A DNA stretch of 64,000 bases from Candidatus Parcubacteria bacterium (GTDB lineage Bacteria; Patescibacteriota; Microgenomatia; UBA12405): the NCBI GenBank assembly GCA_023396915.1, contig JAEWUV010000007.1, positions 146,077 through 210,076 of the forward strand. Reading direction: 5' to 3'. Below, in pieces: positions 642 to 16,123 of this stretch (the stretch's first letter is position 1; the number at the start of each line of letters is the position of its first letter). A program made the translations under genes and the position numbers. The notes below the pieces were generated by a model. The model had not been told where the DNA came from. It worked only from the letters and a program-made list of their open reading frames with translations, and did not search any database.

Positions 642-1481
642 CTACTTAATCGAAAACAATATAAAAAGTTTTCCAAAATAATTTATTATTAATCGTAAAT
701 ATAATAAAAATTGCTCAAAGTTAGAAAGATCATATTCATCTTTATATTTTCTAAAAAGTAGAATATGTTCTTTTAGGGCTTTTTTAAAAAACAAAATAGT
801 TCCCTGACCTTTATGTAAACAAAAACCAAATTGAATATTTCGACAAAAATAACCATTCCCATATTGAAGTATTTTAATCCATAAATCCATATCACTTATA
901 TATTTAAAAGCGCTTTCAAAAAAAAGTTTATTTCTCTTAATAACTGAAGTTCTTAACGTTACTCCAGTTGGTTCACCTAAAGGATTCCTGCCAGATAATA
1001 AAATTTTATTTATCAAAACACCGCCATTAACTTTCTTGCTATATTTATAATGTTTACGAACCATTATTCTCTTGAACTTATTTGTTAAAACATTACTTGA
1101 ACCATAAACCAATACTACATCATCAAATCTATCTAAAATATTAACTTGTTCCAACAAACAATTTTTATATAGAATATCATCTGCACATAATATTTTTAAA
1201 TACTTTCCACTGGCTACCGATAAGCATTTATTCATATTTGGAAACATACCAATATTTTTTTTATTTCTATAAAGATGAATATTATTATATTTTTTTACAA
1301 ATGAATTTATAATTTCAACGCTATTATCAATAGAAGCATTATCAAAAATATAGACATCAAAATCTTTATACGACGAGCTCATTAGTGATTCCAAAGTCCT
1401 AGCTATATATTTTCCAGCATTAAAACAAGGAATACAAACTATTAATTTTTTACTTTTTTTCATTTGTCTTTTCAAGACCAA
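642..1481 (-). CDS. family 2 glycosyltransferase
   Basis: LIVCIPCFNAGKYIARTLESL...DVYIFDNASIDNS is a GT2 N-terminal signature. Confidence 0.75.
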   Translation of the reverse strand: MVLKRQMKKSKKLIVCIPCFNAGKYIARTLESLMSSSYKDFDVYIFDNASIDNSVEIINSFVKKYNNIHLYRNKKNIGMFPNMNKCLSVASGKYLKILCADDILYKNCLLEQVNILDRFDDVVLVYGSSNVLTNKFKRIMVRKHYKYSKKVNGGVLINKILLSGRNPLGEPTGVTLRTSVIKRNKLFFESAFKYISDMDLWIKILQYGNGYFCRNIQFGFCLHKGQGTILFFKKALKEHILLFRKYKDEYDLSNFEQFLLYLRLIINYFGKLFILFSIK

Positions 1482-3477
1482 GTTTAATTAAATAATAAAA
1501 ATGCAAAAGAATAAAAATATTTTTGACTCTTACATCAAACAATGAAAAACCATTTGACAAGTAATAGCAAAACCATAAACCTGCAACCATAAAACATAAA
1601 ACCGATTTTAAAAATAAAACTTTTTCTTTTGAATCTTTATCAACTTCAGTTAAAAGTACCAACATAATAGGAATTGAATATAAAAGACGATAAGCATACA
1701 CACTATTAGGAATTAAATTAATTACGGCACATGACAATATATACAATAATATATATAATTCTCTTTTTTTTAAAACTAAATATGAAAACATCTTGAAAAT
1801 ATTTTTCTTCCTCAAGTGAATAAAGGGTAAAACGAATACAAACAACAACCAAAATTTTGATATAAACGATACTAAACCAAACCGTATCAAACAAGTACCT
1901 TTGTTTACGCAACCAGTAAACAAAGTAGATATTGCCTTTATTGAATGGTTTGATACTAGGTAAAAAGGTTGTGAAAAATTACCATTAGAACCATTGTTAA
2001 ATAACAAAATACCATTCCAAATAGAAAAAATATCAGTACTCACCCCATATAAAACTGGCAAATAAGAAAAGGCTATAAAAGAAAACAAAAAAGACAATAA
2101 TGAAACCAAAACACTTCCAGAAAATAAGATTTCAATAATAGCAAATGGTAATAAAAAAAACTTTACATTACTTATATATCCAACCAAAAAACCAATAAAT
2201 AAAGACCGTAAAATCCTATTTTTTACAGGTATTTTAAGAGAAAAATAAAATAAAAAACCAATTAAAACAAATAAAAATAAATCTAAATTACCCCTCTCTA
2301 CCCCAAAAGCAAAAGGAAGCTGTAAAGAAAAAATTGAAACAAAAAGCAATAACAATAAACGATTTTTACTCTTAACTTTTAAAAAACATATCCAAATAAA
2401 TATTAAAAACAATAAAAAAAATAAAAATAGATACCACTTGTATAAAGTAATATGACAATTTAAAACATCATCAAAACTACAAACTCCATGATTTTTTAAA
2501 ACACTCAATAATGGAGCAAATGTGACTACTATACCAGTACCATAATTAGCAGCACCTTCAACAAAATTTCTTCCATTTAATAAATTATTGGCCGGTAAAA
2601 CTACACCAGTAAACAAATCTCTACCAACGGGAGATAAATAAAACAAAGACTCTGGTGCTTGAATTAAATTTTCAGAATTTCTATAGGAAACAACATACCT
2701 TGACAAGATAGTTAATAAAAGAATTACTAAAAACAAAATCAACGGATCCTTTTTAAGATTATTTTTAAACCACAAAAATATATTTTTGACTAACCAAGAA
2801 AACCAATAAAAAGCTTTCTTAAAAAAGTTAAATATGTTAATAATAAAAATCGAAAAGATAATTGCCAATAAATAATCTCCAATTGACAAAGATTTTAAAA
2901 GAGAAAATAACTTAGAAAATAAAAATATTGGAATTTCACGTTTATTTTGCAACAAATATTCCTTCGAATAACTATACTTACTAAGAAAAGAATTATTGAC
3001 AGCAAGTAGCTGAACTGAATTACCAATAACACCATCTACAGACTCGATTTCAATTACATATTCCTTCCCTTTTGATTTAGTTATCTCTGGAAAACCAAAA
3101 GGGAAATATAAACTATCTTGAAATTTACTTATTTCATAATCATTAACGTAATACCAATCATTACTAATAGATTCTTTAATCTTAAATCTTAGTAAACCAT
3201 GGTTAACTCTATTGTGTATATTAAATCTCATCGAAACTATACCTAATCTATTACTACTAGCTTCAAATCTTAAAACAACTTTTTCTCCTTCTAAAAGTTC
3301 TACGTCTTTAATATCATTAAATTTGTTAACTTGAGTTATTACTGTAGGATTAAATCCAATATAATTACTAAAACTTCTACTTTTTAACATCCCCATTAAT
3401 ACCAACACTAAAACAAAAACAAAAGGGAATAAACAAAACTTTACTTTATTAATATTTCTCATTCTCATACCAATCAT
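1450..3477 (-). CDS. large polytopic membrane protein (putative glycan polymerase / GT-C-like); function unknown
   Basis: 675 aa. N-terminal TM, then a ~150-aa soluble domain, then more than 10 hydrophobic helices. Lies inside a glycan operon. Confidence 0.4.
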   Translation of the reverse strand: MIGMRMRNINKVKFCLFPFVFVLVLVLMGMLKSRSFSNYIGFNPTVITQVNKFNDIKDVELLEGEKVVLRFEASSNRLGIVSMRFNIHNRVNHGLLRFKIKESISNDWYYVNDYEISKFQDSLYFPFGFPEITKSKGKEYVIEIESVDGVIGNSVQLLAVNNSFLSKYSYSKEYLLQNKREIPIFLFSKLFSLLKSLSIGDYLLAIIFSIFIINIFNFFKKAFYWFSWLVKNIFLWFKNNLKKDPLILFLVILLLTILSRYVVSYRNSENLIQAPESLFYLSPVGRDLFTGVVLPANNLLNGRNFVEGAANYGTGIVVTFAPLLSVLKNHGVCSFDDVLNCHITLYKWYLFLFFLLFLIFIWICFLKVKSKNRLLLLLFVSIFSLQLPFAFGVERGNLDLFLFVLIGFLFYFSLKIPVKNRILRSLFIGFLVGYISNVKFFLLPFAIIEILFSGSVLVSLLSFLFSFIAFSYLPVLYGVSTDIFSIWNGILLFNNGSNGNFSQPFYLVSNHSIKAISTLFTGCVNKGTCLIRFGLVSFISKFWLLFVFVLPFIHLRKKNIFKMFSYLVLKKRELYILLYILSCAVINLIPNSVYAYRLLYSIPIMLVLLTEVDKDSKEKVLFLKSVLCFMVAGLWFCYYLSNGFSLFDVRVKNIFILLHFYYLIKLGLEKTNEKK

Positions 3478-4294
3478 ACAAAATTTTTATACATTTTTTT
3501 ATATCTAAAAATTTGAAATCACCCAGTTCTTTTTTTAATCTCTTATTATCGCAAGTATATTCATCATTTAACCCCTCATTTTTTACTACAACCTCTGATT
3601 TTTTTTCTGCCACTTCGTTAATTATTCTAGCTATTGTCAATAAATCTATCTTTTCACCATTTCCAATGTTATAAAACTTATATTTCGCTTCGTGATTAAT
3701 AAAAAAATCAACAATTTTTACAAAATCATCAATATAAACATAAGTAAAATAAACATTTTGACTTATAGTGATTGGTAATCCAGCTAAATTTTGACAAATT
3801 GCATTTGAAATAAACCGATATCGATAATCTTCGTGTTTACCAAATAAACCAAAAATTCTTAAACTAACAATATCGTCCTGTCCTTCAATATATTTTGAAC
3901 AAATATATTTAAAAAATCCATAATCATCAACAGGAATATTTTTATCAAAATCACTTTCCTTTACATCAACAATAGACTTCGATTTATCATATTCCGCCCC
4001 TGATCCTAAATTAATCATTTTTCCAAATTTGTGTTTATTCCTAACAATATTAAAAAACATTCTTAAATTCTGAGACAATGCCGAATCAACTTGTTCTGCA
4101 GCTGTACTACCACCCACTATCGCTGCATGTATTACTACGTCAATTTTATTTTTATTAAAAAAATCATCTACCTTTTTACCATCAGTTAAATCCAATTCCA
4201 ATCTTGTTGGTGCTAAAAAATCATATTCATTTCTAAGTTTCTCATAAATATTTTTTCCTACGAAACCATTAACACCAGTCAACAAAATTTTCAT
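3449..4294 (-). CDS. short NAD(P)-dependent sugar-nucleotide reductase/epimerase (RmlD / CDP-paratose-synthase-like)
   Basis: MKILLTGVNGFVGKNIYEKL Rossmann motif, YICSK (YxxxK), 281 aa. Confidence 0.65.
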   Translation of the reverse strand: MKILLTGVNGFVGKNIYEKLRNEYDFLAPTRLELDLTDGKKVDDFFNKNKIDVVIHAAIVGGSTAAEQVDSALSQNLRMFFNIVRNKHKFGKMINLGSGAEYDKSKSIVDVKESDFDKNIPVDDYGFFKYICSKYIEGQDDIVSLRIFGLFGKHEDYRYRFISNAICQNLAGLPITISQNVYFTYVYIDDFVKIVDFFINHEAKYKFYNIGNGEKIDLLTIARIINEVAEKKSEVVVKNEGLNDEYTCDNKRLKKELGDFKFLDIKKCIKILYDWYENEKY

Positions 4295-4313
4295 ATTAAT
4301 TTAATATCCATTG

Positions 4314-4997
4314 TTATTTTATTGAAAAACCACCATCTATAACCACCACCGAGCCAGTCATATAAGTGTTTTTTTCAGAAACTAAAAACAAAACCAATTG
4401 GGCAATTTCCTCCGGATTAACTAATCTCTTTAAAGGGATATCTTCCTCCAATGCTTTTATCTTTTCTGGTGAATTTCTGGCTGTTACCAATTCAGTGTTG
4501 GTAAAACCAGGACAAACTGAATTTACTAAAATATTATCCTGTGCCAACTCTAAAGCCAAAGCCTTTGTCATTCCATTAATTCCATGCTTTGCAGAACAAT
4601 ACAAAACCTGTTTACCTCTAGCTACCACACCAAAAGCCGAACTTATATTAATAATTCTTCCCCATTTGTTTTTCTTCATATTACCAACAAAAGCTCGAGT
4701 TAATTTAATTGGAGCCAATAAATCTATCTGAAAAGTATCCTTTATATTCTTATCGTCCATCTCTTCAATCCACTGAGGGTAATTAATCCCAGCATTATTA
4801 ATTAATATATCTACTTTCAAACTCTTATTTTTTTTAATATATTGATTAATTGATTTATCATCAGACAAATCTAACTCCTGTCTAGTAGGGGAAATAACAC
4901 AATATTTATTCTCTAACAATAAATCCTTTATAGCCTTACCTATTCCCCTAGAAGCACCTGTAATTAAAACATTCTTCTTTAGATTGTTAATCATCAT
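4314..4997 (-). CDS. SDR-family short-chain dehydrogenase/reductase
   Basis: VLITGASRGIGKAI and NAG motifs, classic SDR, 227 aa. Confidence 0.8.
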   Translation of the reverse strand: MMINNLKKNVLITGASRGIGKAIKDLLLENKYCVISPTRQELDLSDDKSINQYIKKNKSLKVDILINNAGINYPQWIEEMDDKNIKDTFQIDLLAPIKLTRAFVGNMKKNKWGRIINISSAFGVVARGKQVLYCSAKHGINGMTKALALELAQDNILVNSVCPGFTNTELVTARNSPEKIKALEEDIPLKRLVNPEEIAQLVLFLVSEKNTYMTGSVVVIDGGFSIK

Positions 4998-5012
4998 ATC
5001 GTATTTTACATC

Positions 5013-6833
5013 CTATTCTTTGGTACCTCCACTTATGATCATGTTTTCTTTCATTTCCTTTTCTGAAATGAACGGACACATATCTTCAAGTGGAGGAGAA
5101 ATAAACCGGCCACCATCTACCATTTTTGTAGTTAATTTAGGAGTTAAAACTAAATCTCTAACAGTATTAATATCGCAAAGAACAGGGCCATCAAAATTCA
5201 AAACTTGCTTTATTTTCTTAACCATTTCTTGGTGATTATTAATTCTTACAGTCTTAATACCATAAGCCTGTCCTACTTTTACATAATCAGGACAACTAAC
5301 CCCACTGTTAGGATCAGACGCGACATGTCTACCATTAAATAAATTATCTTGGGTATTAACAATTGACCTGTATCCATTATTGCTATAAACAAATAATTTT
5401 ACTGGTAATTTATAATGTTTAATAACCTGTAATTCATGAACACTTAATTGCAAACTTCCATCACCCTCAAAACAAATAACCCTTTTTTTATTATTAGCAA
5501 AACAAGCACCTATCGCCGCCGGTAAACCATAACCCATCTGAGCAGCTCCCAAATTTAAAATTATCCTTTGATTTTTTTTAACTTTAAAAACTTGATAAGA
5601 ACAGTTCATTGGACCAATTCCATTAGACAATACCACAACCTCATTTTCCTTTAAAAAATCACAAACAGTGTTTATAAAACAATATTGATTAACATATTTT
5701 TTATCTTTACAAAAATCTTCGGAAAAGGGTGGATATTTTTCATTAATTTTCGAACAATAATTCAACCACCTCTTTATTTTTAAACTACTATTTTTTACTT
5801 TTTCTTTTAATTGTTTGATCATTTCGTCAATAAAATCTTTAGCGTCAAAATTAATCGGTAAATCCACTGATAAAATCGGTTTATCTAATTCGTTCTTGTC
5901 AATATCAACCATAATCTTATAAGCTTTTCTGGCAAAAGCCTTATAGTTAAAACCTACCGTTAAAATATCCATTCTAGCTCCAACAGAAAGTAAAAAATCA
6001 CTATTTTGAATAATAAAATTTGCTGCCCGTTGCCCCAAAGCATGAGCTCTTCCAAAATAATACGGATTATCATCAGCCACTAAATCATAACCCACATAAC
6101 TTGTTAAAACTGGTATTTTAAGTAACTTTATTAGTTTTAATAATTCTTTACTAGCGCCTGACAAATGAACTCCATTCCCAACATACAAAACCGGCCTTTC
6201 TGATTTTAAAAGTTTATTTATTGTTTTCATTACTAAACTAGACAACTTTTTTTTATCAATAGAAAAATCTAAATTGATTTCACTTTCTTTAAACTCCTTA
6301 AAATTCTTCTCATCAACCAAAGCCCCTTGAATATCCAACGGTATATCTAACCAAACTGGGCCTTGTCTTCCATGAGTTGCTAAAAACAAAGCTTTGTCTA
6401 AATGATATTTAATCTCATTAGGGTCCATCACTGTTACTGCATATTTTGTAATTGGTTTAACTAAATCAACTATATTAATTTCTTGTGGACCTAATTGTCT
6501 CATCCCTCCAATTTTAGCCCCCATTAATTCTCTTTTAACTTGACCAGAAATCATTAAAACCGGAATAGAATCCAACCAACTTCCCATCACTCCCGTAATC
6601 GCATTTGTTCCACCAGGACCAGTAGTAACCAAACCAACACCAAATCCACTTAAGCGCGAATATCCTTCAGCAGCGGTAGACACTGCTTCTTCGTGGTGAC
6701 AACAAACATAATTAATATTACTTCTACCCAAAGAATCAACTAAATGTATATTTCCACCACCAGACAAAAGAAAAACATCCTTTATTCCTTTAGTATTTAA
6801 ATACTTAAAGACAAAATCGCTAAGTTTTATCAC
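5013..6833 (-). CDS. thiamine-pyrophosphate-dependent enzyme, acetolactate-synthase large-subunit-like (YerE-like sugar branching enzyme candidate)
   Basis: N-terminal TPP pyrimidine-binding region (LVTTGPGGTNAITGVMGSWLDSIPVLMISGQV) and C-terminal GDGS...NN TPP-binding motif. 606 aa. Confidence 0.8.
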   Translation of the reverse strand: MIKLSDFVFKYLNTKGIKDVFLLSGGGNIHLVDSLGRSNINYVCCHHEEAVSTAAEGYSRLSGFGVGLVTTGPGGTNAITGVMGSWLDSIPVLMISGQVKRELMGAKIGGMRQLGPQEINIVDLVKPITKYAVTVMDPNEIKYHLDKALFLATHGRQGPVWLDIPLDIQGALVDEKNFKEFKESEINLDFSIDKKKLSSLVMKTINKLLKSERPVLYVGNGVHLSGASKELLKLIKLLKIPVLTSYVGYDLVADDNPYYFGRAHALGQRAANFIIQNSDFLLSVGARMDILTVGFNYKAFARKAYKIMVDIDKNELDKPILSVDLPINFDAKDFIDEMIKQLKEKVKNSSLKIKRWLNYCSKINEKYPPFSEDFCKDKKYVNQYCFINTVCDFLKENEVVVLSNGIGPMNCSYQVFKVKKNQRIILNLGAAQMGYGLPAAIGACFANNKKRVICFEGDGSLQLSVHELQVIKHYKLPVKLFVYSNNGYRSIVNTQDNLFNGRHVASDPNSGVSCPDYVKVGQAYGIKTVRINNHQEMVKKIKQVLNFDGPVLCDINTVRDLVLTPKLTTKMVDGGRFISPPLEDMCPFISEKEMKENMIISGGTKE

Positions 6834-6835
6834 TA

Positions 6836-7891
6836 CTATTCCTTATTATTAAAATAAACTAAATAATCTTCTATATCTTTTTTAAATTCTTTGTTAAATT
6901 TTAATCTAACAACACTTATTTTACCAATCCCTTCACATAAAATAGCATCCACTTCGTCTCCAATGACTTTCTTGTCTGTTTTTAAAAATTTCATATATAA
7001 GTCGATATTATCAACTGGAAACGTTTTAAAAGATATAAATTTTTTAATAAAAAGATGAATCCTTAAAAATTCATCTTTTAGTAAAATTCCTCTTTTCATT
7101 GAAATAAAATTAGCTAAATCTATCCCCATTAAAACAGCTAAACCATGAGGGATTTTATTTTTTGTATAGCCTTCTAATGCATGTCCAAAAGTATGACCAT
7201 AATTAAGTAATTTTCTTATATTTTTTTCTAATTCATCTTTCTCAACAATTTCCTTCTTTATAAGCAAACTCTTATAAACTACATCTTCAGTTACTTTACT
7301 ATTCTTTTCCAAATCAGAATAAAACACTCCTCCTTTAATTAATGCGTGTTTTATTATCTCTCCAATACCATTAATTGAATCGACTTCAGACAAAGTATTT
7401 AAAAAACTTATATTTATATATATTTCTATAGGAGGATGAAAAGAACCAACTTGATTTTTAAAACCGCCTATATTGATTCCAGATTTAGCCCCAATACAAC
7501 TATCCACCATAGAAAGAAGTGTAGTGGGAACAAAAACCCAATCAATCCCTCGTTTTATTATATGTGAAGTAAAAGATCCAATATCTTGAACTAAGCCACC
7601 TCCAATTACAACAACTTTATCTTGTTTTTGAATCCCGTTATCCAATAAAAAATAAACATACTTGTTAACTTCATTTAAGGTTTTATTTTTTTCAACCGCT
7701 TCAAAATAATTAACCGATTTAGCCAACGAAACTCCTAATTTCAAATTATCCTTATAAAGATTCCAAATATTTTTATCTATTAAAAAATGACAACGATATT
7801 TTTTAACCAACTCGTTGGTTAAATTATTTAAATTTTTAATAAAAATAACTTCATAATCTTTAATACTAGATTTTATTTTTATATTTCTCAT
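6836..7891 (-). CDS. 3-dehydroquinate-synthase-like sugar phosphate cyclase family protein
   Basis: VVVIGGGLVQDIGSF...PTTLLSMVDSCIGAKSGIN...GSFHPP...HGHTFGHALE aligns to AroB core motifs. Confidence 0.75.
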   Translation of the reverse strand: MRNIKIKSSIKDYEVIFIKNLNNLTNELVKKYRCHFLIDKNIWNLYKDNLKLGVSLAKSVNYFEAVEKNKTLNEVNKYVYFLLDNGIQKQDKVVVIGGGLVQDIGSFTSHIIKRGIDWVFVPTTLLSMVDSCIGAKSGINIGGFKNQVGSFHPPIEIYINISFLNTLSEVDSINGIGEIIKHALIKGGVFYSDLEKNSKVTEDVVYKSLLIKKEIVEKDELEKNIRKLLNYGHTFGHALEGYTKNKIPHGLAVLMGIDLANFISMKRGILLKDEFLRIHLFIKKFISFKTFPVDNIDLYMKFLKTDKKVIGDEVDAILCEGIGKISVVRLKFNKEFKKDIEDYLVYFNNKE

Positions 7892-8820
7892 TTTTTAATT
7901 AAATAATTTATAGCTTCATAAACCGCACCTACTGGAGATTTTTTTATTTCCAAAACATACGGAGGTGCATACACATTCGATTTTATAATATTACCATCAT
8001 TAGTGAAACTATAAGGATAGCTTAATAATCCCTTATTATTATCATTAGGAGAATCTCCAAAAGTAGCTAATTGATTATCTTTTATTTTTAATTTCTTAAC
8101 TAAATTTTTCATCATATACAATTTCCCATCAACAATCTTTCCATTAATTCTTAAGTTTCTACCCACATCAGCAAATGGTAAATTTCCCCAAGAAACACAT
8201 AAATCATAAGGGGTCAACTTTCTTCTCAACACATTAATGATTTTCTTTTGTTCATTAATATCTGACGGTAAGACAAAAGTAACCTTAACAGCTTCAGCAA
8301 AAACACAACCCTTAGAATTACAAGAAATCTTGTAACAAGTCTCTGGCATTAAATCCTTTGGAGGTTTATTTTTCAAAAATTCATTAAAAAAAATTTTTGA
8401 TTTTAGGTCTGGTTCAACCTTTAACTTCTTGTAAACATCAAACGTTTTTTTTAATAAAGATTTATCAAAACTATTAGAATATATTTTTTTAACAAACACT
8501 TTTTTAGGAGTAAAAGTTAATCTATTTAAAACTGCTCCTGTTCCGCCAGACCGCCAAACAGTAAAAGAACAGTCGTTCTTCATACAAAATATCAAACCCA
8601 ACTCTCTAAGTTTAATGTCTAAAGTGGTGTTTCTTCCTGATACAAAAGCAAAATCTATTCCACTCTGAAACACACGAAAAGCCAACTCAATCACATTATC
8701 TAGTGAATTATAAGTTTTATCATTCCTATCATACACTGTTCCATCATAATCAACCGCAATTAATTTTACACCTCCACACTTTACTTCTTCTAATTTTTGC
8801 CACACTAAACTATTTTTCAT
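7888..8820 (-). CDS. HAD-superfamily (IIB, Cof-like) phosphatase
   Basis: KLIAVDYDGTV (DxDGT motif I), FVSGR, FGDSPND (motif IV). Confidence 0.7.
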   Translation of the reverse strand: MKNSLVWQKLEEVKCGGVKLIAVDYDGTVYDRNDKTYNSLDNVIELAFRVFQSGIDFAFVSGRNTTLDIKLRELGLIFCMKNDCSFTVWRSGGTGAVLNRLTFTPKKVFVKKIYSNSFDKSLLKKTFDVYKKLKVEPDLKSKIFFNEFLKNKPPKDLMPETCYKISCNSKGCVFAEAVKVTFVLPSDINEQKKIINVLRRKLTPYDLCVSWGNLPFADVGRNLRINGKIVDGKLYMMKNLVKKLKIKDNQLATFGDSPNDNNKGLLSYPYSFTNDGNIIKSNVYAPPYVLEIKKSPVGAVYEAINYLIKK

Positions 8821-9401
8821 TTACCTAATTTTAAATCATTTAAATTTTTTAAAATAAATTTAAGACAATCTGAATTTTCCGTATCCACTTCTACAACTGG
8901 CCAAAAATCTATCTTTTCAAAAAAACTTTCTGCCCATCTTAATTGTTTCAAGGTAGTTATATTTGAAAAACTACCTTCCTTTTTTCTTTTATTCAATCTT
9001 TTAACAATTTCATTATCTCCCGGCTTTTTTAAATAAAATATTCTTAAAGGTATCTTATACTTAAGCAAATAATCCTTTAAGACAACCAATGGCGCCTTAA
9101 ATTCTTTCCTTGAAAACGTAGCCGGTAACAAAACTGATTCACCTGAAGAAACCATATACCAAGCCTTAGAACAAAAATAAGCATAAACCGCAGCCATTAT
9201 AGGAAATTCTTCACTTTCAGTTAATAATTTAGGAGTCTCTCCATTGCATCTGTTTGGATCGATTAAGGTTCTAATTCTGTCCAACTCTAAAATCTCAAAG
9301 TTTGACACGCTTTTAATTTTCTTAGCCAAATAATCCTTTCCTCTCAAGGGGGAGCCATATACAACAACCACACAGGGTTTATATTTATGTTTTTTTACCA
9401 T
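8817..9401 (-). CDS. P-loop kinase-like protein (divergent Walker A GSPLRGKD)
   Basis: VVVVYGSPLRGKDYLAKKI looks like a P-loop at the N-terminus, 194 aa. Translationally coupled to the HAD and DHQS-like genes. Confidence 0.4.
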   Translation of the reverse strand: MVKKHKYKPCVVVVYGSPLRGKDYLAKKIKSVSNFEILELDRIRTLIDPNRCNGETPKLLTESEEFPIMAAVYAYFCSKAWYMVSSGESVLLPATFSRKEFKAPLVVLKDYLLKYKIPLRIFYLKKPGDNEIVKRLNKRKKEGSFSNITTLKQLRWAESFFEKIDFWPVVEVDTENSDCLKFILKNLNDLKLGK

Positions 9402-9456
9402 ATTTGCCTACAAAAGTCATTATAACAAACTAGTTGGTATTATTATTTTTTAATTT

Positions 9457-10650
9457 ATGATACAATCATCCTATAATAATTACAACGTTATGAACAATAA
9501 TTCAATTTTCGATGATCTTTTCGTTTTAGAATTAGCCAATAACCATTGGGGAGACGTAAATAGAGGACTAAAAATTATCAGTGACTTTTCTAAAATTGTT
9601 AGATTTAATAATGTACGTGCTGCTATAAAATTTCAATTTCGCGATGTTGATAACTTTATTCACCCAGATTATATAAATAGAACTGATGTTCGATATATAG
9701 GCAAAACACTAGCCACTAAACTATCAGATCAAAATCTCGATATCCTAGTAAAAGCTTGTAAAAAAAGTGGTTGTATTACTATGGCCACACCTTTCGACGA
9801 AAGATCAGTTGATCTTTGTACCGAATTAAATATTGAAATAATAAAAATTGCTAGTTCTGATATTAATGATTGGGTTTTAATTGAAAAAATCGCCACTACT
9901 AAAAAACCAGTGGCTATGTCTACAGGAGGATCATCTTTAAAAGATATAGATGATTTAGTAAAATTCTTCGAAAATCGCAATATTCCATTAGCTATTAATC
10001 ATTGCGTATCTATTTATCCATCAGAAGATAACGAACTTGAATTAAACCAAATTGATTTTCTTAAAAACAGGTATCCTGACCACGTAATCGGGCTATCTAG
10101 CCATGAATACCATGATTGGGATTCATCAATAACGATTGCCTATGCCAAAGGTGCTAGGACTTTTGAAAGACATATAGACATAAGCACTGAAGATAAAACA
10201 GTTAGTCCATACTGTTCCTTACCACACCAAATAGACAAATGGTTCAAAGCTTTTCATAAAGCCAGAGAAATGTGTGGTGGTAGCGCAGATACAAAAAGAG
10301 TCCCTCCAAAAAAAGAAATTGATTATTTAGACCAATTAGTCAGAGGTGTCTATGCCAAAGAAGACCTACCAATAGGACATGTATTATCTGATGCAGATAT
10401 ATTTTTAGCAATTCCTTTACTTAAAGGTCAAATTTCTTGTCGAGAACTTATGTCTGGAGAAGTTCTCATCAAGCCAGTTGAAAAAAATAAACCAATTTTT
10501 ATTGATATGATAGATAGCCCATACGCTTACAATGAAGAACTTAAAAAAACAATATATGAAAGAGGAATAGATATGACTCCACCCGCAGAGACAGAAACAC
10601 CAAAAGAAAGTACTAATCAAACTCAACCAATCTTCAACAATCCTAAATAA
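9457..10650 (+). CDS. NeuB-family PEP-dependent aldolase (sialic/pseudaminic/legionaminic acid synthase-like) with C-terminal SAF domain
   Basis: LELANNHWGD, IKFQF, MATPFDERSVDL...IIKIASSDINDW, CVSIYPS, IGLSSHE and TFERHID all align with NeuB motifs. Confidence 0.8.
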   Translation: MIQSSYNNYNVMNNNSIFDDLFVLELANNHWGDVNRGLKIISDFSKIVRFNNVRAAIKFQFRDVDNFIHPDYINRTDVRYIGKTLATKLSDQNLDILVKACKKSGCITMATPFDERSVDLCTELNIEIIKIASSDINDWVLIEKIATTKKPVAMSTGGSSLKDIDDLVKFFENRNIPLAINHCVSIYPSEDNELELNQIDFLKNRYPDHVIGLSSHEYHDWDSSITIAYAKGARTFERHIDISTEDKTVSPYCSLPHQIDKWFKAFHKAREMCGGSADTKRVPPKKEIDYLDQLVRGVYAKEDLPIGHVLSDADIFLAIPLLKGQISCRELMSGEVLIKPVEKNKPIFIDMIDSPYAYNEELKKTIYERGIDMTPPAETETPKESTNQTQPIFNNPK

Positions 10651-11614
10651 TTTTTTTGTACCAATCAAAAATACCTTTAGAAGTTTTTGATATTAAACTT
10701 TCATTTTTCCACCCAATCTTTTTTATTTTGTCATAATTTAATGATTGGTAGGGGATTTCGTTTTTAGCAATATTTAAAACTTTATAAGGAACTTTTTTAC
10801 CCAAAGCTTTTTCAATTTCTTTTATTAAATCTATTACCGACAAAGTATCATTTGATCCAAAATTAAAAGCTTCACCTTTTACTTCATCAATTTTTTCGGC
10901 CAACATCAAATAACCTTTCACCACATCTTTGACATATAAATAATCACGCACTGCTTTACCATCGCTTCTCAACTCTAAAGTTTCATTTTTAAGTAAAGAC
11001 ATCATAATTCCTGGAATAATCCGAGAAAAATTATTATCACCTTCACCATAAATATTTCCAAATCGAGTAATAACCACTGGTACTTGGTAAGTTTTAAAAT
11101 ACATTCTCGAAATCAAATCAGTCGCCGATTTTGACACATCATAAGGATGATCACCTTTTACCGGGTCTGTTTCTATATACTGTCCCGAAGCTAATTTACC
11201 ATAAGCTTTATCTGACGATGCCACTACAACTGCTTTTATTTTTGGATAAAGCCTGGCGCTTTCCAATATATTTGTTGTCCCCATCACATTCGACTTTATG
11301 GTTTTTAACGGATTAGCATAAGCTGTAGTCACTATTGCCTGAGCCGCCAAATGGAAAATATAATCAATTTCAAATTTCGTTACTAAATCCATCACTCCAT
11401 CAAAATCAGCTATATCTACCTGTGCCATAACAACTTTTTTATCAAATCCTTTCACCATAAAATAAGACAAAGGATCGGTGTATTCAAAAGTAGTTACAAC
11501 ATTAGCCCTCTGATTGATTAATTCCTCAACTAAATGAGATCCAACAAAACCAGTTCCACCCGTCACTAAAACATTTTTTCCTGCAAATTTATTTTTTATT
11601 TCCATATTTTCCAA
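10643..11614 (-). CDS. rfbG: NDP-hexose 4,6-dehydratase, CDP-glucose 4,6-dehydratase-like
   Basis: VLVTGGTGFVGSHL, FHLAAQ, TNVMGT, SSDKAYG, YDVSK. Lies adjacent to rfbF. Confidence 0.65.
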   Translation of the reverse strand: MENMEIKNKFAGKNVLVTGGTGFVGSHLVEELINQRANVVTTFEYTDPLSYFMVKGFDKKVVMAQVDIADFDGVMDLVTKFEIDYIFHLAAQAIVTTAYANPLKTIKSNVMGTTNILESARLYPKIKAVVVASSDKAYGKLASGQYIETDPVKGDHPYDVSKSATDLISRMYFKTYQVPVVITRFGNIYGEGDNNFSRIIPGIMMSLLKNETLELRSDGKAVRDYLYVKDVVKGYLMLAEKIDEVKGEAFNFGSNDTLSVIDLIKEIEKALGKKVPYKVLNIAKNEIPYQSLNYDKIKKIGWKNESLISKTSKGIFDWYKKII

Positions 11615-12375
11615 GGTGGATTAGATTCACTCCACCAAGTGTTTAAATCCTTTAATTCCTTATTAGTATCCATACAAGCCCAAAAACCATCATGGTTATA
11701 CAATGAAAGCTGTTTTTCTTTGGCCAATCTTTGCAATGCTGGATGCTCTGTTTCACCAGGTCTTAAATATTTAAAAAATTCTCTATTAAACACCATATAT
11801 CCACCGTTAACCCAATCGTTCATTACTGGTTTTTCAGTAAACTCTTTAACCTTATTTTTCGAATCAACTAAAACAACACCAAATTTAGAAATCGGATGTA
11901 TTCCGGTTATTGTCCCTATTGTTTTTTGTCTTTTGTGAAATTCTAATAATTTTTTTATATTAATATCACTCACACCATCTCCGTAAGTCACCATAAAACT
12001 TTCATCTTCTTTTGGAATATATTTTTTACATTTTAAAATTCTTTCGCCTGGCATAGTTTCTAAACCCGTATCCACAAAAGTAATTTTAAAATCATCAACT
12101 TCTTCTCTGTTTTCCATATGGTACTCACATTCAAAATCTTTTGTATTTAAAGTAAAATCAGAAGTCAAAGCCTTTTGGTTCAAAAAGAAAGTTTTTATAT
12201 AGTCACCTTTGTAACCCAAAGCCAAAATAAACTCATTAAATCCGTAAAACGAATACATTTTCATGATATGCCACAAAATTGGCTTATTACCCACATATAC
12301 CATTGGCTTTGGTTTAAATTCCGTTTCTTCTCGCAACCTAGTTCCTTGACCACCACAAAGAATAATAACTTTCAT
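11596..12375 (-). CDS. rfbF: glucose-1-phosphate cytidylyltransferase
   Basis: MKVIILCGGQGTRLREETEFKPKPMVYVGNKPILWHIMKMYSFYG is nearly diagnostic of RfbF. Confidence 0.85.
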   Translation of the reverse strand: MKVIILCGGQGTRLREETEFKPKPMVYVGNKPILWHIMKMYSFYGFNEFILALGYKGDYIKTFFLNQKALTSDFTLNTKDFECEYHMENREEVDDFKITFVDTGLETMPGERILKCKKYIPKEDESFMVTYGDGVSDINIKKLLEFHKRQKTIGTITGIHPISKFGVVLVDSKNKVKEFTEKPVMNDWVNGGYMVFNREFFKYLRPGETEHPALQRLAKEKQLSLYNHDGFWACMDTNKELKDLNTWWSESNPPWKIWK

Positions 12376-12415
12376 AAAGTGATGATACCACAGCCCAATA
12401 TATAGTAGAATATGT

Positions 12416-13648
12416 TTGCAAATGTTTAATTTTAAATATTACTTCAAAAAACAAGTTATCGATTTTCAAAAATATGGTTGGGCTGGAGTATTTACCAAAA
12501 TCAAAAATAGACTTATATACCCAATTTTAAAAATTAGGATAAAAAAAATTCTAAAAACAGCCAAAAACTATCATCGTAAATCCATACTCATCGTCAATGG
12601 TGCCGAAAAATCTGTTTCTGAAATTCACCGAGTAAAACATTTAGAAGACAAACTTAAAATATTAAACATTCCTTTTTTATCCTTAACTGATAATTTACTT
12701 AATCGTTTTACTCCAAGAAATATTAATAAATTTAATTTACTTTATATTCATCGATGCCCTTACAAAAATAACATTATTACATTAATTAACGATTTTAAAA
12801 ATCAACACAAACTGGTTATCTATGATATTGACGATCTAATTTTTGACAAAGACCAACTTAAAAAAATAAGTTTTCTTAAAAACATGAACTCACGATTTTG
12901 CCATCAATTTATTCAAAATACCGACGTTCATTTAAAAATTATGAAGAGGTGTGATTTTACAATCACACCAACTAAATTTCTTTCTCAATACATCAACAAA
13001 AAATATAAAATCCATACCAAAGTTTTACGTAACCACTTGGATCAAAGCAGTCTAGACAAAGGCCGAAAAATTTACCAAGCTCAAAAACAATCTCAAAATA
13101 AAAATATAACCATCGGCTATTTTTCCGGTACTAAAACTCATGACAAAGATTTTCAAATTATTCAACCTTCACTTCAAAAACTTTTGACTCAAAACCCAAA
13201 TTTAAATCTAAAAATAGTCGGTATCTTAGATATAAATTCAAGTCTTAACAAATTCAAAAATCAAATAATCACCCACAAAAAAGTTCCTTATAAAAGATTA
13301 ATGAACTTGTATAAAGGTGTTGATATCAATATCGCCCCTTTAGAAATAAATAATGATTTTTGTGAAAGCAAAAGTGAATTAAAATATTTCTTTGCCGCCG
13401 CTTGTGGTATTCCTACCGTCGCTTCTGCCACCGACGCTTTTAAACACGCTATCAAACAAGGAGAGAACGGTTACCTTTGTAAAAATTCATCCGATTGGTA
13501 TCAATATTTAAATCGACTTATTCAAAATAAAAAAGAAAGATTAGTTATGGGTAAAAAAGCCTTTATCCAAACCAAACAAGAATATTCACCCAAATATCAA
13601 GCTAAACAACTTAAAAAGATACTAGAAGAAGTAAAATTTTATGACTAA
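12416..13648 (+). CDS. GT-B fold glycosyltransferase (GT4-like C-terminal domain)
   Basis: C-terminal ESKSELKYFFAAACGIPTVASATDAFKHAIKQGENGYLC resembles the GT4 E-x7-E region. Divergent from rfbF with a 40-bp spacer. Confidence 0.6.
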   Translation: MQMFNFKYYFKKQVIDFQKYGWAGVFTKIKNRLIYPILKIRIKKILKTAKNYHRKSILIVNGAEKSVSEIHRVKHLEDKLKILNIPFLSLTDNLLNRFTPRNINKFNLLYIHRCPYKNNIITLINDFKNQHKLVIYDIDDLIFDKDQLKKISFLKNMNSRFCHQFIQNTDVHLKIMKRCDFTITPTKFLSQYINKKYKIHTKVLRNHLDQSSLDKGRKIYQAQKQSQNKNITIGYFSGTKTHDKDFQIIQPSLQKLLTQNPNLNLKIVGILDINSSLNKFKNQIITHKKVPYKRLMNLYKGVDINIAPLEINNDFCESKSELKYFFAAACGIPTVASATDAFKHAIKQGENGYLCKNSSDWYQYLNRLIQNKKERLVMGKKAFIQTKQEYSPKYQAKQLKKILEEVKFYD

Positions 13649-14827: not shown

Positions 14828-16123
14828 ATGAAACGAGATATCACAAGTAAATTATTGGAATGGAAAAACTCAGAAAACCGTAAACCATTAATTTTAACCG
14901 GCGCCAGACAAGTTGGGAAAACCTGGATTTTAAAAGAATTTGGCAAGCAATACTATCAAAATACTGCGTACATCATGTTTGAAAAAAACGAAAACATGAA
15001 AAAATTATTTGACGGATCTCTGTCGCCCAAAGATTTATTACCTTTTCTTCAAGCAGAGACTAACATCTCAATAGACCCAAAAAATACATTGATAATTTTT
15101 GATGAAATCCAAGCCGTCCCCAATGCCATTACCTCTCTTAAGTTTTTCAACGAGGAAGCACCGGAATATTCAATTATTGCTGCCGGTTCCACGTTAGGAG
15201 TTACCTTACACAATAGTGGATCTTTTCCCGTTGGTAAGGTAAATTTTATGACTCTTTATCCTATGACGTTTTTGGAATTTTTAGATGCCAACAATGAAAA
15301 ACAATTAACAGATTTAATAAAAAATACAAAAGAGTTATCTTCGATAAATATATTTCACGAAAAATTAGATAAATATCTCAAACAATATTTTTTGATTGGC
15401 GGGATGCCTGAAGTTGTTAAAAAATATATTGAAACAAACAGTTTTGAAGAAGCTCGTACAATTCAAAAACAATTACTTGACTCTTACAACCAAGATTTTT
15501 CCAAATATACAACACCCATAGCTGCAACTAAACTTCAAATGGTTTGGAAATCAATTCCTTCTCAAATAACCAAAGAAAATCGTAAATTTATATATGGAGC
15601 AGTTAAAAATAGTGCCCGAGCCAGAGATTTCGAAACCACTATACAGTGGTTAGTTGACAGTTCATTAGTAAATAAAATTAATCGAGTTAGTCTACCTAAA
15701 CCACCATTAAAAAGTTACGAGGAATTTGAGATTTTTAAGTTATTTCTGCATGATATTGGTTTACTTGGAGCTATGGTTAACGCATCACCAAAATCAATCA
15801 TCAACAATAATAATATTTACACTGAATTTAAAGGAGCATTAGCAGAACAATTTGTTTGTCAGGAGTTAATAGCCTCCGGGATAGAAACATTCTATTGGTC
15901 AGCTAATGACTCAAGACAAGAAATAGATTTCTTGACAGAAAGAAATAATGAAGTTATTCCTATTGAAGTAAAATCAGGAAAAAATTTAACATCAGTTTCA
16001 TTTAATAGATTTATGAAGGCTAACCAGTCAAAATATGGTTATAAAATATCAAATAGGCCTTATATGAATAACAAAAAAATAATAAATTTACCATTATATT
16101 TAACCTCAACAATATCCCAATAA
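14828..16123 (+). CDS. AAA+ ATPase of the AAA_14/DUF4143 family (function unknown)
   Basis: Walker A TGARQVGKT, Walker B LIIFDEIQ, then a C-terminal DUF4143-like region. 431 aa. Confidence 0.7.
   Translation: MKRDITSKLLEWKNSENRKPLILTGARQVGKTWILKEFGKQYYQNTAYIMFEKNENMKKLFDGSLSPKDLLPFLQAETNISIDPKNTLIIFDEIQAVPNAITSLKFFNEEAPEYSIIAAGSTLGVTLHNSGSFPVGKVNFMTLYPMTFLEFLDANNEKQLTDLIKNTKELSSINIFHEKLDKYLKQYFLIGGMPEVVKKYIETNSFEEARTIQKQLLDSYNQDFSKYTTPIAATKLQMVWKSIPSQITKENRKFIYGAVKNSARARDFETTIQWLVDSSLVNKINRVSLPKPPLKSYEEFEIFKLFLHDIGLLGAMVNASPKSIINNNNIYTEFKGALAEQFVCQELIASGIETFYWSANDSRQEIDFLTERNNEVIPIEVKSGKNLTSVSFNRFMKANQSKYGYKISNRPYMNNKKIINLPLYLTSTISQ

Follow-up and report, generated by a model that had tools for sequence, protein, structure and literature searches.

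The AroB-like gene of this locus encodes, on sequence grounds, a specialised paralogue of 3-dehydroquinate synthase (DHQS) and not a housekeeping AroB, and the module in which it lies most likely makes an unusual acidic, branched or carbocyclic cell-surface sugar, not aromatic amino acids. We give an even chance to the fuller reading, in which an unusual acidic sugar unit of this CPR bacterium's surface glycan is the joint product of an eight-gene operon, a NeuB-like gene transcribed divergently from it and a pair of CDP-hexose genes. The preliminary description had taken the first three genes of the operon, encoding a kinase, a HAD phosphatase and the cyclase, as the pathway; these are indeed part of it, but it is defined by two members that were missed, a NeuB-like synthase and a YerE/JanthE-like ThDP enzyme. 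The window, by which we mean the whole 64-kb stretch of DNA analysed, holds sugar genes together with glycosyltransferases, and no aro genes were found in it or in its flank. Kinase, HAD and cyclase open a dense run of eight genes on the minus strand (9401 to 642); this run and its neighbours are arranged as follows.

8817..9401, minus strand: P-loop small-molecule kinase (AAA_33 type), 194 aa, first gene of the operon (HMMER family, predicted fold)
7888..8820, minus strand: HAD-IIB (Cof/Hydrolase_3-like) phosphatase, 310 aa, motifs intact (profile matches, motif check)
6836..7891, minus strand: DHQS (AroB)-like NAD+/metal phosphate-lyase/cyclase, 351 aa, sister to TIGR04425 (profiles, tree, residues)
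5013..6833, minus strand: ThDP-dependent carboligase of the JanthE/YerE-like group, with a GTG start 2 nt past the cyclase stop (match to JanthE, 8rph)
4314..4997, minus strand: FabG-like short-chain dehydrogenase/reductase (SDR), a near-universal partner of the cyclase clade (profile matches)
3449..4294, minus strand: RmlD/GDP-fucose-synthase-like NAD(P) reductase or epimerase, kept in CPR relatives; candidate nucleotide-sugar or branch ketoreductase (profiles)
1450..3477, minus strand: polytopic membrane protein, 675 aa, no Pfam match; candidate glycan polymerase or transferase (sequence)
642..1481, minus strand: GT2 glycosyltransferase, last gene of the run (profile match)
9457..10650, plus strand: NeuB-family PEP-dependent ulosonate synthase-like, divergent from the operon across a 55-nt spacer, called start 9490 (profiles)
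10643..11614, minus strand: CDP-glucose 4,6-dehydratase-like SDR (TIGR02622, 196 bits; cut-off 278)
11596..12375, minus strand: glucose-1-phosphate cytidylyltransferase-like NTP transferase (TIGR02623, 271 bits; cut-off 300)

Both junctions between the first three genes are 4-nt overlaps, exactly as first described, and the ORF coordinates, the Pfam matches and the cyclase motifs PTTLLSMVDSCIGAKSG and NYGHTFGHALE confirm that an overlapping minus-strand triad with AroB-like motifs is real. The special coupling that had been read into it stands less well: approximately 8 of the approximately 38 co-directional junctions in the window show the same overlap, so that it is weak evidence for any particular linkage of these three genes, which in any case belong to the longer run of eight. 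Scans for promoters and terminators gave only chance-level results. CPR relatives retain the gene set of the locus (53-67% identity), with the NeuB-like gene conserved as the divergent neighbour.

The cyclase matches the Pfam families DHQ_synthase and DHQS_C (E about 1e-31). On the aroB model TIGR01357 it scores 253 bits, below the equivalog cut-off of 305, and a Pelagibacter AroB adjoining aroK scores 347 bits. Its best family is TIGR04425 (342 bits, cut-off of 400 not reached), a hypothetical equivalog without assigned function which is labelled ‘AroB-related putative sugar phosphate phospholyase (cyclizing)’; together with the other CPR copies and the copies found with FGGY kinases it falls in the range of 321-352 bits, all below 400, and representatives of a second kind of locus, termed Type B below, score 428-454 bits. 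In a neighbour-joining tree all copies with a glycan context stand apart from the AroB of E. coli and Pelagibacter, with the window cyclase as the sister of TIGR04425, and among the loci examined adjacency to aroK was seen for the Pelagibacter copies only. The two model scores, the separate clade and the aro-free window bear out the earlier suggestion that this gene does not serve aromatic amino-acid synthesis.

Residue-level comparison was made against E. coli AroB. R114, D130, K136, N146, E178, K212, R226, N230, H233, H237, H249 and K307/K308 are invariant in 40 clade members and common to E. coli AroB; K181 is also invariant in these 40 and K in E. coli AroB, and is replaced by H in one Type B member. 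Within this set K212 and R226 are residues which we take, from the structural work on the A. nidulans DHQS, to be binders of the DAHP carboxylate. The clade departs from AroB in a set of signature changes (G to Q102, W118, S to C132, Y231) and in the loss of the Glu that follows the third metal His, HGE becoming HG(L/I/V/K); of these, Q102, C132 and the HG(L/I/V/K) change flank the NAD and substrate loops. By PDB sequence comparison the solved DHQSs match the cyclase at 163 bits as against 82-90 bits for EEVS/DDGS/DOIS (ValA, 4p53, 90; DDGS, 5tpr, 83; DOIS, 2d2x, 82), the comparison with these neutral sugar-phosphate cyclases being one of bit scores. As the phosphate and carboxylate residues of DHQS are kept and the DHQS scores are better, the substrate is probably a DAHP-like 3-deoxy-ulosonate phosphate rather than a neutral sugar phosphate, contrary to the sugar-phosphate cyclase first proposed, and the enzyme probably acts in the DHQS manner, by NAD+-mediated oxidation followed by beta-elimination of phosphate. 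A role on a CDP-linked branched sugar was also considered and is unlikely given the compact DHQS active site and the unchanged carboxylate-binding residues.

The Walker A of the kinase reads GSPLRGKD, as had been noted, and does not conform to the canonical GxxxxGK[S/T]. A full HMMER search found 128 homologues of the protein and was used in place of a word-indexed protein search, which had returned only the kinase itself and one fragment. The family motif is GxPLxGK[T/S] (consensus GxPLxGKT), and D is found in the window protein and in three relatives (P0123, P0129 and P0131); by sequence, the motif described as atypical is a variant inside an otherwise GK[T/S] family. AAA_33 is matched by 64 of 66 family members and SKI by 27 of 66. 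An AlphaFold model built from 66 homologues reached a pLDDT of 95 (a single-sequence model, with a pLDDT of 41, was discarded), and its best folds in Foldseek were the PFK-2 kinase domain, gluconate kinase (1knq) and a sugar kinase (4eun), with a probability of 1.00 to the PFK-2 kinase domain, gluconate kinase and APS kinase and TM scores of 0.57-0.70. According to this model the 194-aa protein has a P-loop small-molecule kinase fold, which is what had been supposed; PDB sequence searches gave no match for the kinase or the HAD protein.

In the HAD protein the motifs DYDGT, SGR, K and GDSPND are all intact, the DxD nucleophile included, and they are conserved in four of five orthologues, the fifth (L013) being degenerate. 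It scores 26.5 bits on Hydrolase_3 (cut-off 20.9) and 31.1 bits on TIGR01484, below the cut-off of 41.8. Both enzymes look active, judging by these motifs for the phosphatase and by the predicted fold for the kinase. Their genes are fused in one relative (P0143); in a 13-kb contig (L097) an HAD homologue lies between NeuB and ThDP genes and the cyclase is absent, and four further contigs, all short, have kinase and HAD directly beside the ThDP gene, although the contexts of kinase relatives are mostly contigs of 1-6 kb, in which absence of the cyclase is weak evidence, so that only the 13-kb contig is informative. The fusion and the NeuB-HAD-ThDP arrangement without cyclase suggest that one phosphorylated intermediate is probably drawn on by either the phosphatase or the cyclase, and not by the two in succession; kinase and HAD may even serve the ThDP donor branch only. 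The sequence put forward in the preliminary description, phosphorylate, cyclise, dephosphorylate, is not favoured by these arrangements, and since DHQS-type chemistry itself expels the phosphate no later dephosphorylation is needed. What the evidence points to is phosphorylation, then condensation with PEP, then dephosphorylation, the phosphorylated intermediate being the point at which the cyclase route diverges.

The ThDP enzyme matches JanthE (8rph), which is described in the literature as YerE-like, at 404 bits compared with at most 242 for acetolactate synthases; a ring-cleaving role of the IolD/CDH type was rejected, no such family being among its best matches. The closest solved relative of the NeuB-like protein is 3g8r (208 bits). 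A DegT/E1-like gene lies just beyond the window (L001), and no E3 reductase was seen at the locus. YerE-type enzymes are associated with the acyl-branched sugars yersiniose, erwiniose, caryophyllose and gastriose, and in the published scheme, as set out in the part of the source drawn on here, the product of an aldolase, a hydroxylated alpha-keto acid, is joined to CDP-4-keto-3,6-dideoxyglucose by a YerE-like enzyme, an SDR reduction following; for caryophyllose the proposed donor is a terminally deoxygenated hydroxy-alpha-keto acid, and the aldolase MMAR_2331 is of the HpcH/citrate-lyase type (PMC9306805). Common to these pathways and the window are a YerE/JanthE-like ThDP carboligase, an SDR, an aldolase-type enzyme and CDP-hexose-like genes, the last scoring below their cut-offs here; the E1-like DegT just past the window is a further shared element. 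The window differs in that a PEP-dependent synthase of the NeuB type takes the part of the aldolase, and in having a DHQS-like enzyme, a kinase and an HAD phosphatase, which go unmentioned in that part of the source (PMC9306805).

The association is not confined to CPR bacteria. Cyclase and ThDP enzyme occur together in 28 loci from many phyla, every one of them with an SDR, and an aldolase is present in 27 of the 28, drawn from four unrelated families (NeuB 12, HMGL-like 8, HpcH-like 7, DHDPS-like 1); a kinase is found in 15 (FGGY 13, P-loop 2) and an HAD protein in eight (IIB 4, IA 4). The 56 loci without the ThDP enzyme hold one aldolase, one kinase and no HAD. Wherever an FGGY kinase is present it lies within 400 nt of the cyclase (14/14 loci), and in the window's own lineage the P-loop kinase occupies its place; the linkage of kinase and cyclase proposed at the outset is supported by this recurrence of a kinase beside this type of cyclase. 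SDR genes accompany the cyclase in 71 of 84 loci, 63 of them within 400 nt and 70 on the same strand. Partners are also fused, a DHDPS-like aldolase to a kinase in L004 and the ThDP enzyme to an HpcH-like aldolase in L060. Such non-homologous replacement of kinase, phosphatase and aldolase across many phyla is strong evidence for a conserved, undescribed pathway. In Type B loci the cyclase-SDR pair is accompanied, in place of the ThDP enzyme, by Gfo/Idh/MocA, 2-hydroxyacid dehydrogenase, SIS isomerase and a KdsB/PseF-like CMP-ulosonate cytidylyltransferase, as well as Maf-like transferases and a YhcH-like protein. Most true TIGR04425 members are of this type; L073, above the cut-off, lies in a ThDP-type locus. 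Literature searches found no relevant publication on TIGR04425 or on a glycan-linked DHQS paralogue.

Taken together, a pathway may be proposed in which the P-loop kinase would phosphorylate a small aldose, or an ulosonate derived from it, and, to go by its family and context, the NeuB-like synthase would carry out the condensation with PEP to a 3-deoxy-2-ulosonate omega-phosphate resembling DAHP. This intermediate could then meet two fates. The cyclase, whose residues for the reaction are conserved, would perform a DHQS-like NAD+/metal-dependent oxidation, phosphate elimination and, most likely, aldol ring closure to a dehydroquinate-like cyclic keto-acid; alternatively the HAD phosphatase would free the ulosonic acid, an alpha-keto acid, on the model of the Kdo and animal sialic-acid routes. 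The JanthE/YerE-like enzyme would join an alpha-keto-acid donor to a cyclic ketone through a new C-C bond, this acceptor being either the CDP-4-keto-deoxyhexose supplied by the neighbouring genes or the carbocyclic ketone; SDRs would reduce the ketones formed, and the GT2 enzyme and membrane protein would attach the unit to the glycan. However, this scheme should be considered with caution, as we infer its substrate, its product and the order of its steps from sequence. If the cyclase eliminates phosphate, a phosphatase with the same intermediate as its substrate seems either superfluous or a competitor; dehydroquinate is no longer an alpha-keto acid, so that the cyclised product of an aldolase-cyclase-ThDP pathway running strictly in line could be an acceptor only; the CMP-ulosonate cytidylyltransferase and Maf-like transferases of Type B loci would fit a true ulosonic acid better than a carbocycle; and the CDP-hexose genes lie under their equivalog cut-offs. 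Unlikely, in our estimate, is the broader proposition that the clade represents a widespread route, in more than ten phyla, from a DAHP-like ulosonate phosphate to a carbocyclic ‘carba-ulosonic’ acid which is then C-branched by the ThDP enzyme or joined to a nucleotide sugar.

A serious competitor, though still on the unlikely side, is deoxygenation without ring closure, which borrows the logic of the NDP-hexose 4,6-dehydratases: the DHQS-like enzyme would oxidise, eliminate phosphate and return the hydride, and reduction of the resulting ketone by the SDR would then yield a 3,omega-dideoxy-2-ulosonic acid that serves as the donor of the YerE-like enzyme for a caryophyllose-like, long, terminally deoxygenated branch and that is CMP-activated in Type B loci. 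This would employ every conserved gene (aldolase, kinase, cyclase-like lyase, SDR and ThDP enzyme) in a single linear pathway, and would explain both the closeness of the SDR to the cyclase in most loci and the Type B partners, which need a real ulosonic acid. It also agrees with the terminally deoxygenated donor proposed for caryophyllose, with the HpcH/citrate-lyase-type aldolases, like MMAR_2331, that stand beside the cyclase in seven loci, and with the signature changes beside the NAD and substrate loops. However, the full catalytic set of DHQS is unchanged, and in the classic DHQS work the dephosphorylated intermediate closes to dehydroquinate spontaneously, so that avoiding ring closure would require an altered hydride path, for which there is no supporting evidence; the HAD phosphatase, moreover, would be left superfluous. 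The model of the preliminary description, spelt out here as one in which a neutral EEVS/DDGS/DOIS-like cyclase makes a cyclitol, kinase and HAD handle the phosphates and the cytidylyltransferase activates the cyclitol phosphate, we consider improbable. The co-occurrence of cyclase, kinase, HAD and NTP transferase in one locus speaks for it, as do the name of TIGR04425 itself, a putative sugar phosphate phospholyase, and the characterised C7-cyclitol pathways of acarbose and validamycin, which employ cyclitol kinases, an HAD phosphatase and a nucleotidyltransferase. The bit scores favouring DHQSs over ValA, DDGS and DOIS tell against it, as do the invariance of K212 and R226, taken as carboxylate binders, the near-constant presence beside the cyclase of a PEP- or pyruvate-dependent aldolase, which makes a keto acid, and a 2026 cyclitol review in which no such glycan-linked class appears. 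Compared with the C7-cyclitol pathways (EEVS ValA/AcbC) the window has the same types of enzyme, but its cyclase is of DHQS type in sequence, its kinase and HAD come from other families and it lies in a glycan island, not in an antibiotic cluster.

It is very improbable that the three genes have no functional link and are adjacent merely through genome compactness, their overlaps being incidental. The frequency of 4-nt overlaps in the window and the occurrence of the HAD-NeuB-ThDP module free of the cyclase would agree with this, but in distant phyla the cyclase is again surrounded by kinase, HAD and aldolase genes that are analogous without being homologous, and several fusions join partners. 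Barely credible is an ordinary 3-dehydroquinate synthase, for aromatic amino acids or for quinate/shikimate, stranded in a glycan island; it could appeal to the complete DHQS active site and to the score on the aroB HMM, yet that score is under the cut-off and TIGR04425 fits better, the clade is distinct from the aroK-linked AroB, its synteny with ThDP, SDR and NeuB genes crosses phyla, the window is free of aro genes, and CPR genomes are mostly without amino-acid biosynthesis. With AroB (TIGR01357; 3clh, 5eks, 1dqs) the window clade has in common the two-domain fold family, a similar length and the conserved catalytic, metal, phosphate and carboxylate residues; it differs in standing apart, below the equivalog cut-off, with its signature substitutions, and in never being found beside aroK or other aro genes but with an SDR and usually a ThDP carboligase or CMP-transferase. 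With TIGR04425, its best-scoring family, it shares membership of a non-housekeeping clade and the SDR partner, and differs in its score below 400 bits and in its setting, most true members being in Type B loci.

Phosphorylated ulosonic-acid routes are those of the animal ManNAc kinase, Neu5Ac-9-P synthase and Neu5Ac-9-P phosphatase and of KdsA/KdsC. The window module resembles them in having a kinase, a NeuB-family synthase and an HAD protein side by side, the kinase and HAD being fused in a relative; it differs in that the locus is without a CMP-sialate-type cytidylyltransferase and its product seems to feed ThDP and DHQS-like enzymes. In reduced genomes a DHQS homologue that carries the annotation ‘aroB’ can pass for a remnant of the shikimate pathway, and here such a gene belongs to a distinct paralogous clade in glycan biosynthesis. 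The module also connects ThDP enzymes of the YerE/JanthE type, which form tertiary alcohols, with enzymes of the sugar-phosphate-cyclase type, both of biocatalytic interest. If the carba-ulosonic reading were true, the surface of CPR bacteria, rumen Lachnospiraceae and others would carry carbocyclic sugars or sugars with carbocyclic branches, and sugars such as caryose and bradyrhizose would have a first enzymatic rationale; the paper on bradyrhizose gives no gene list for its cluster. The module is also carried by cultured organisms, namely Butyrivibrio sp. MB2005, Lachnospiraceae AB2028 and NC2004, and Joostella sp. CR20, which offer a route to solving both the pathway and its glycan product.

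The kinase-like protein, the HAD phosphatase and the AroB-like cyclase, a relative of 3-dehydroquinate synthase (DHQS), are encoded by the leading three genes in a compact run of eight on the minus strand, and it is the neighbouring genes which, judged from their sequences, would define the pathway of this triad. The run and the genes facing it are as follows:

8817-9401, minus strand: kinase-like protein, 194 aa
7888-8820, minus strand: HAD phosphatase, 310 aa
6836-7891, minus strand: cyclase, 351 aa
5013-6833, minus strand: ThDP enzyme, beginning 2 nt past the cyclase stop
4314-4997, minus strand: FabG-like short-chain dehydrogenase/reductase (SDR)
3449-4294, minus strand: RmlD/fucose-synthase-like reductase
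1450-3477, minus strand: membrane protein, 675 aa
642-1481, minus strand: GT2, last gene of the run
9457-10650, divergent from the operon across a 55-nt spacer: NeuB-family gene
10643-12375, beyond the NeuB-family gene: CDP-glucose 4,6-dehydratase-like and glucose-1-phosphate cytidylyltransferase-like genes

Both junctions within the triad are overlaps of exactly 4 nt, which the preliminary description took as a sign of coupling. The overlaps are real, but about 8 of the roughly 38 co-directional junctions in the window overlap likewise, and they thus reflect operon packing rather than a special triad. A terminator scan of the run gave no match between genes; its single match lies within the gene for the membrane protein. 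Matches to promoter-like sites were at chance level. Elsewhere the window consists of an extensive glycan island, in which over 12 glycosyltransferases are joined by a UDP-glucose dehydrogenase, a mannose-1-P guanylyltransferase-like gene and an initiating Bac_transf gene; purL/purQ, hisS, rsmH and a PBP are also encoded, no aro genes were found within the window, and an E1-like DegT gene lies just past its edge. The scaffold is metagenomic (906,714 bp), and the closest named homologues of the cyclase come from Candidatus Roizmanbacteria and Gottesmanbacteria (CPR/Patescibacteria).

The cyclase carries both DHQS Pfam domains, and its best curated family is TIGR04425, ‘AroB-related putative sugar phosphate phospholyase (cyclizing)’ (342 bits, cut-off 400), against 253 bits for the aroB equivalog (cut-off 305); a Pelagibacter AroB adjoining aroK, used for comparison, scored 347 with aroB and 260 with TIGR04425. 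In a neighbour-joining tree of 84 loci and E. coli AroB, all cyclase copies with a glycan setting group in a single clade, separate from the housekeeping enzymes, and the window cyclase falls in a CPR subclade. The earlier suggestion that this is not the AroB of aromatic amino-acid synthesis is therefore upheld by score, clade and context, and a housekeeping role is much less likely, even though the sites of the housekeeping enzyme are retained. From A. nidulans DHQS we take those for metal, phosphate and the DAHP carboxylate to be, in window numbering, R114, D130, K136, N146, E178, K181, K212, R226, N230, H233, H237, H249 and K307/308. The window cyclase keeps them all, as had been noted at the outset for the metal- and phosphate-binding motifs. 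All of these, K181 included, are invariant in 40 clade members, and in a seven-sequence alignment with E. coli and Pelagibacter AroB only K181 varies (H in locus L039). Close to these sites the clade departs from AroB in a few residues (G to Q102, F to W118, S to C132, and Y231), and the Glu following H249 is lost. As the DHQS binding sites are all kept, the cyclase is a specialised paralogue whose substrate is probably still a DAHP-like 3-deoxy-2-ulosonate phosphate. Its best solved relatives by sequence are likewise DHQSs (H. pylori 3clh, 163 bits), with ValA, DDGS and DOIS at 90, 83 and 82 bits, so that the neutral sugar-phosphate cyclase initially envisaged is much less likely.

A word-indexed search with the kinase-like protein recovered only itself and one fragment; a full HMMER search against 1.84 billion representatives gave 128 homologues. 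Most have the Walker A motif G-x-P-L-x-G-K-T/S, the lysine being followed by D in the window protein and three relatives and by N in two; the atypical GKD is hence genuine, but is a variant inside a normal kinase family. Pfam AAA_33 matched 64 of 66 aligned members and shikimate kinase 27, and the P-loop and DxD region align with E. coli AroK. An AlphaFold model built on the family alignment (pLDDT 95) has as its top structural matches a 6-phosphofructo-2-kinase domain, gluconate kinase, an EFI ‘sugar kinase’ and APS kinase; since these are kinase folds, the P-loop nucleotide-binding fold expected of this protein is present in the predicted structure. The phosphatase is a divergent HAD-IIB protein with all four catalytic motifs intact, as they are in four of five orthologues.

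CPR relatives of 53-67% identity have the same NTP transferase, dehydratase, divergent NeuB, cyclase, ThDP enzyme, SDR, reductase and DegT genes, whilst the kinase differs: P-loop in the window, P-loop fused to a DHDPS-like aldolase in L004, and FGGY in L008. A further 80 loci from many phyla, obtained by a scan of species-representative genomes, extend this comparison, and the loci sort into three groups. In Type A the cyclase occurs beside a ThDP gene; in Type B it occurs with Gfo/Idh/MocA, 2-hydroxyacid dehydrogenase, SIS isomerase and KdsB/PseF-like cytidylyltransferase genes, often also with HpcH aldolase, Maf-like and YhcH-like genes; and housekeeping copies adjoin aroK, a neighbour seen only in Pelagibacter within the 84-locus set. 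In 28 loci the cyclase is accompanied by a full-length ThDP enzyme, and every one of these also has an SDR. Aldolases, drawn from four unrelated families, occur in 27 of them (NeuB 12, HMGL/ErwI-like 8, HpcH/citrate-lyase-like 7, DHDPS-like 1), a kinase in 15 (FGGY 13, P-loop 2) and a HAD in 8 (IIB 4, IA 4), the corresponding counts in the other 56 loci being 1, 1 and 0. The SDR lies within 400 nt of the cyclase in 63/71 loci and the FGGY kinase in 14/14. Fusions join a ThDP carboligase to an HpcH-like aldolase (L060, 6658-9336), a DHDPS-like aldolase to a P-loop kinase (L004, 8520-9974) and a P-loop kinase to a HAD-IIB (P0143; L095, 2174-3622). That kinase, phosphatase and aldolase have been exchanged repeatedly for non-homologous equivalents speaks most strongly for their sharing one pathway with the cyclase, and a mere coincidence of neighbouring genes is much less likely.

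The ThDP enzyme scores 404 bits against JanthE (PDB 8rph) and at most 242 against acetolactate synthases; JanthE is a YerE-like carboligase, coupling alpha-keto-acid donors with ketone acceptors. In a published scheme for YerE-like branching of LPS sugars, the hydroxylated alpha-keto acid formed by an aldolase is coupled by the ThDP enzyme to CDP-4-keto-3,6-dideoxyglucose, and an SDR reduces the branch, giving products such as erwiniose, caryophyllose and gastriose (PMC9306805). All roles of this scheme have candidate counterparts among the window genes; that of the aldolase would fall to a NeuB-type PEP-dependent synthase, the best solved relative of which is 3g8r. In two other loci the NeuB-like synthase has a fused C-terminal cupin domain (L095, 617-2128; L097, 825-2360) with a faint lyxose-isomerase-like match, and the fusion suggests a built-in sugar isomerase that would provide the aldose.

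P-loop kinase family members lie directly beside HAD and ThDP genes in four other contigs (in the orders HAD-kinase-ThDP, kinase-ThDP, NeuB::cupin-kinase::HAD-ThDP and kinase-HAD-ThDP), and the 13-kb contig L097 holds NeuB::cupin, HAD, ThDP, GT2 and sugar-tailoring genes with the cyclase absent. The kinase, NeuB-like synthase and HAD thus look like a phosphorylated ulosonic-acid route. Animal sialic acid and Kdo are made by phosphorylation, condensation with PEP and dephosphorylation; here the kinase would phosphorylate, the NeuB-like enzyme would condense with PEP and the HAD would dephosphorylate, so that the ThDP enzyme would receive a free alpha-keto acid. The DHQS-like enzyme would most plausibly take the phosphorylated intermediate ahead of HAD action. 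As its chemistry would need a phosphate leaving group and itself expel it, the order first proposed for the triad (phosphorylate, cyclise, dephosphorylate) is unlikely, and a better view is that cyclase and phosphatase both draw on a single intermediate.

As the active site is unchanged from DHQS, our preferred reading is that the cyclase would give the canonical outcome, a dehydroquinate-like cyclic ketone, which is of the kind that YerE/JanthE-like enzymes accept. In the main rival reading no ring is closed: the enzyme, together with its SDR partner, would deoxygenate the end of the chain, yielding a 3,omega-dideoxy-ulosonic acid that serves as the ThDP donor or, in Type B loci, as the CMP-activated sugar. 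On this reading, both the setting of the Type B loci and the linear logic of the genes would be better explained. However, it requires a changed delivery of hydride, for which no support was found, and the de-phosphorylated DHQS intermediate cyclises spontaneously, which also counts against it.

That AroB has a paralogue was known before, the sister family being already listed in NCBIfam as a hypothetical equivalog. No literature was found on the function of the TIGR04425-type clade or on its link to YerE-like enzymes, and a 2026 review of cyclitol synthases includes no such class. What appears new is the combination, a DHQS-superfamily enzyme within a putative YerE-type branched-sugar pathway, which can be tested in cultured carriers met in the genome scan, such as Butyrivibrio sp. 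MB2005 and Lachnospiraceae AB2028 and NC2004.

Type B is a second widespread setting of the same cyclase-SDR pair, and its cyclase copies reach the TIGR04425 cut-off. Examples among L021-L078 are L039 (about 3-17 kb), L025 and L076 (Joostella sp. CR20); the dehydrogenase is PGDH/PdxB-like and the isomerase GmhA-like, often with a Maf/WaaZ-like transferase and a ‘cyclase’ family protein. The gene set resembles a pathway, so far undescribed, leading to an acid sugar activated with CMP. The CPR locus L006 has two NeuB-like and ThDP pairs (2897-5653 and 7770-12884), with HAD and cyclase beside one only, which suggests two related branched-sugar branches within one cluster. PF05635 (‘23S rRNA intervening sequence protein’) genes lie within the Roizmanbacteria glycan cluster of L004 (2837-3229 and 18152-18511). 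The three closest genome hits (L012, L013, L014) are titled ‘uncultured Gammaproteobacteria’; their loci and proteins look CPR-like, and the labels of these bins may be wrong.

The GC content of the window is 25-38%, being 0.25-0.33 in the first ~22 kb (1-22000), which holds the triad, against 0.33-0.38 at 24000-64000; the stretch of lower GC may be a sub-island of glycan genes that is variable or was acquired. GC skew is negative over the entire window, whatever the gene strand. The glycosyltransferase genes are interrupted by one for an AAA_14/DUF4143 ATPase (14828-16123, plus strand), around which the intergenic spacing is slightly wider; it may have been inserted as a mobile or defence-related element. 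A metallo-beta-lactamase-fold protein with a Pfam Anti-Pycsar_Apyc1 match (23465-24238, minus strand) and a nearby 574-aa ORF without family match (25210-26934, plus strand) are set apart by non-coding stretches unusually long for this genome, and a 641-aa DUF4012 protein (49142-51067, plus strand) comes directly after Bac_transf and a series of GT4 and GT2 genes.
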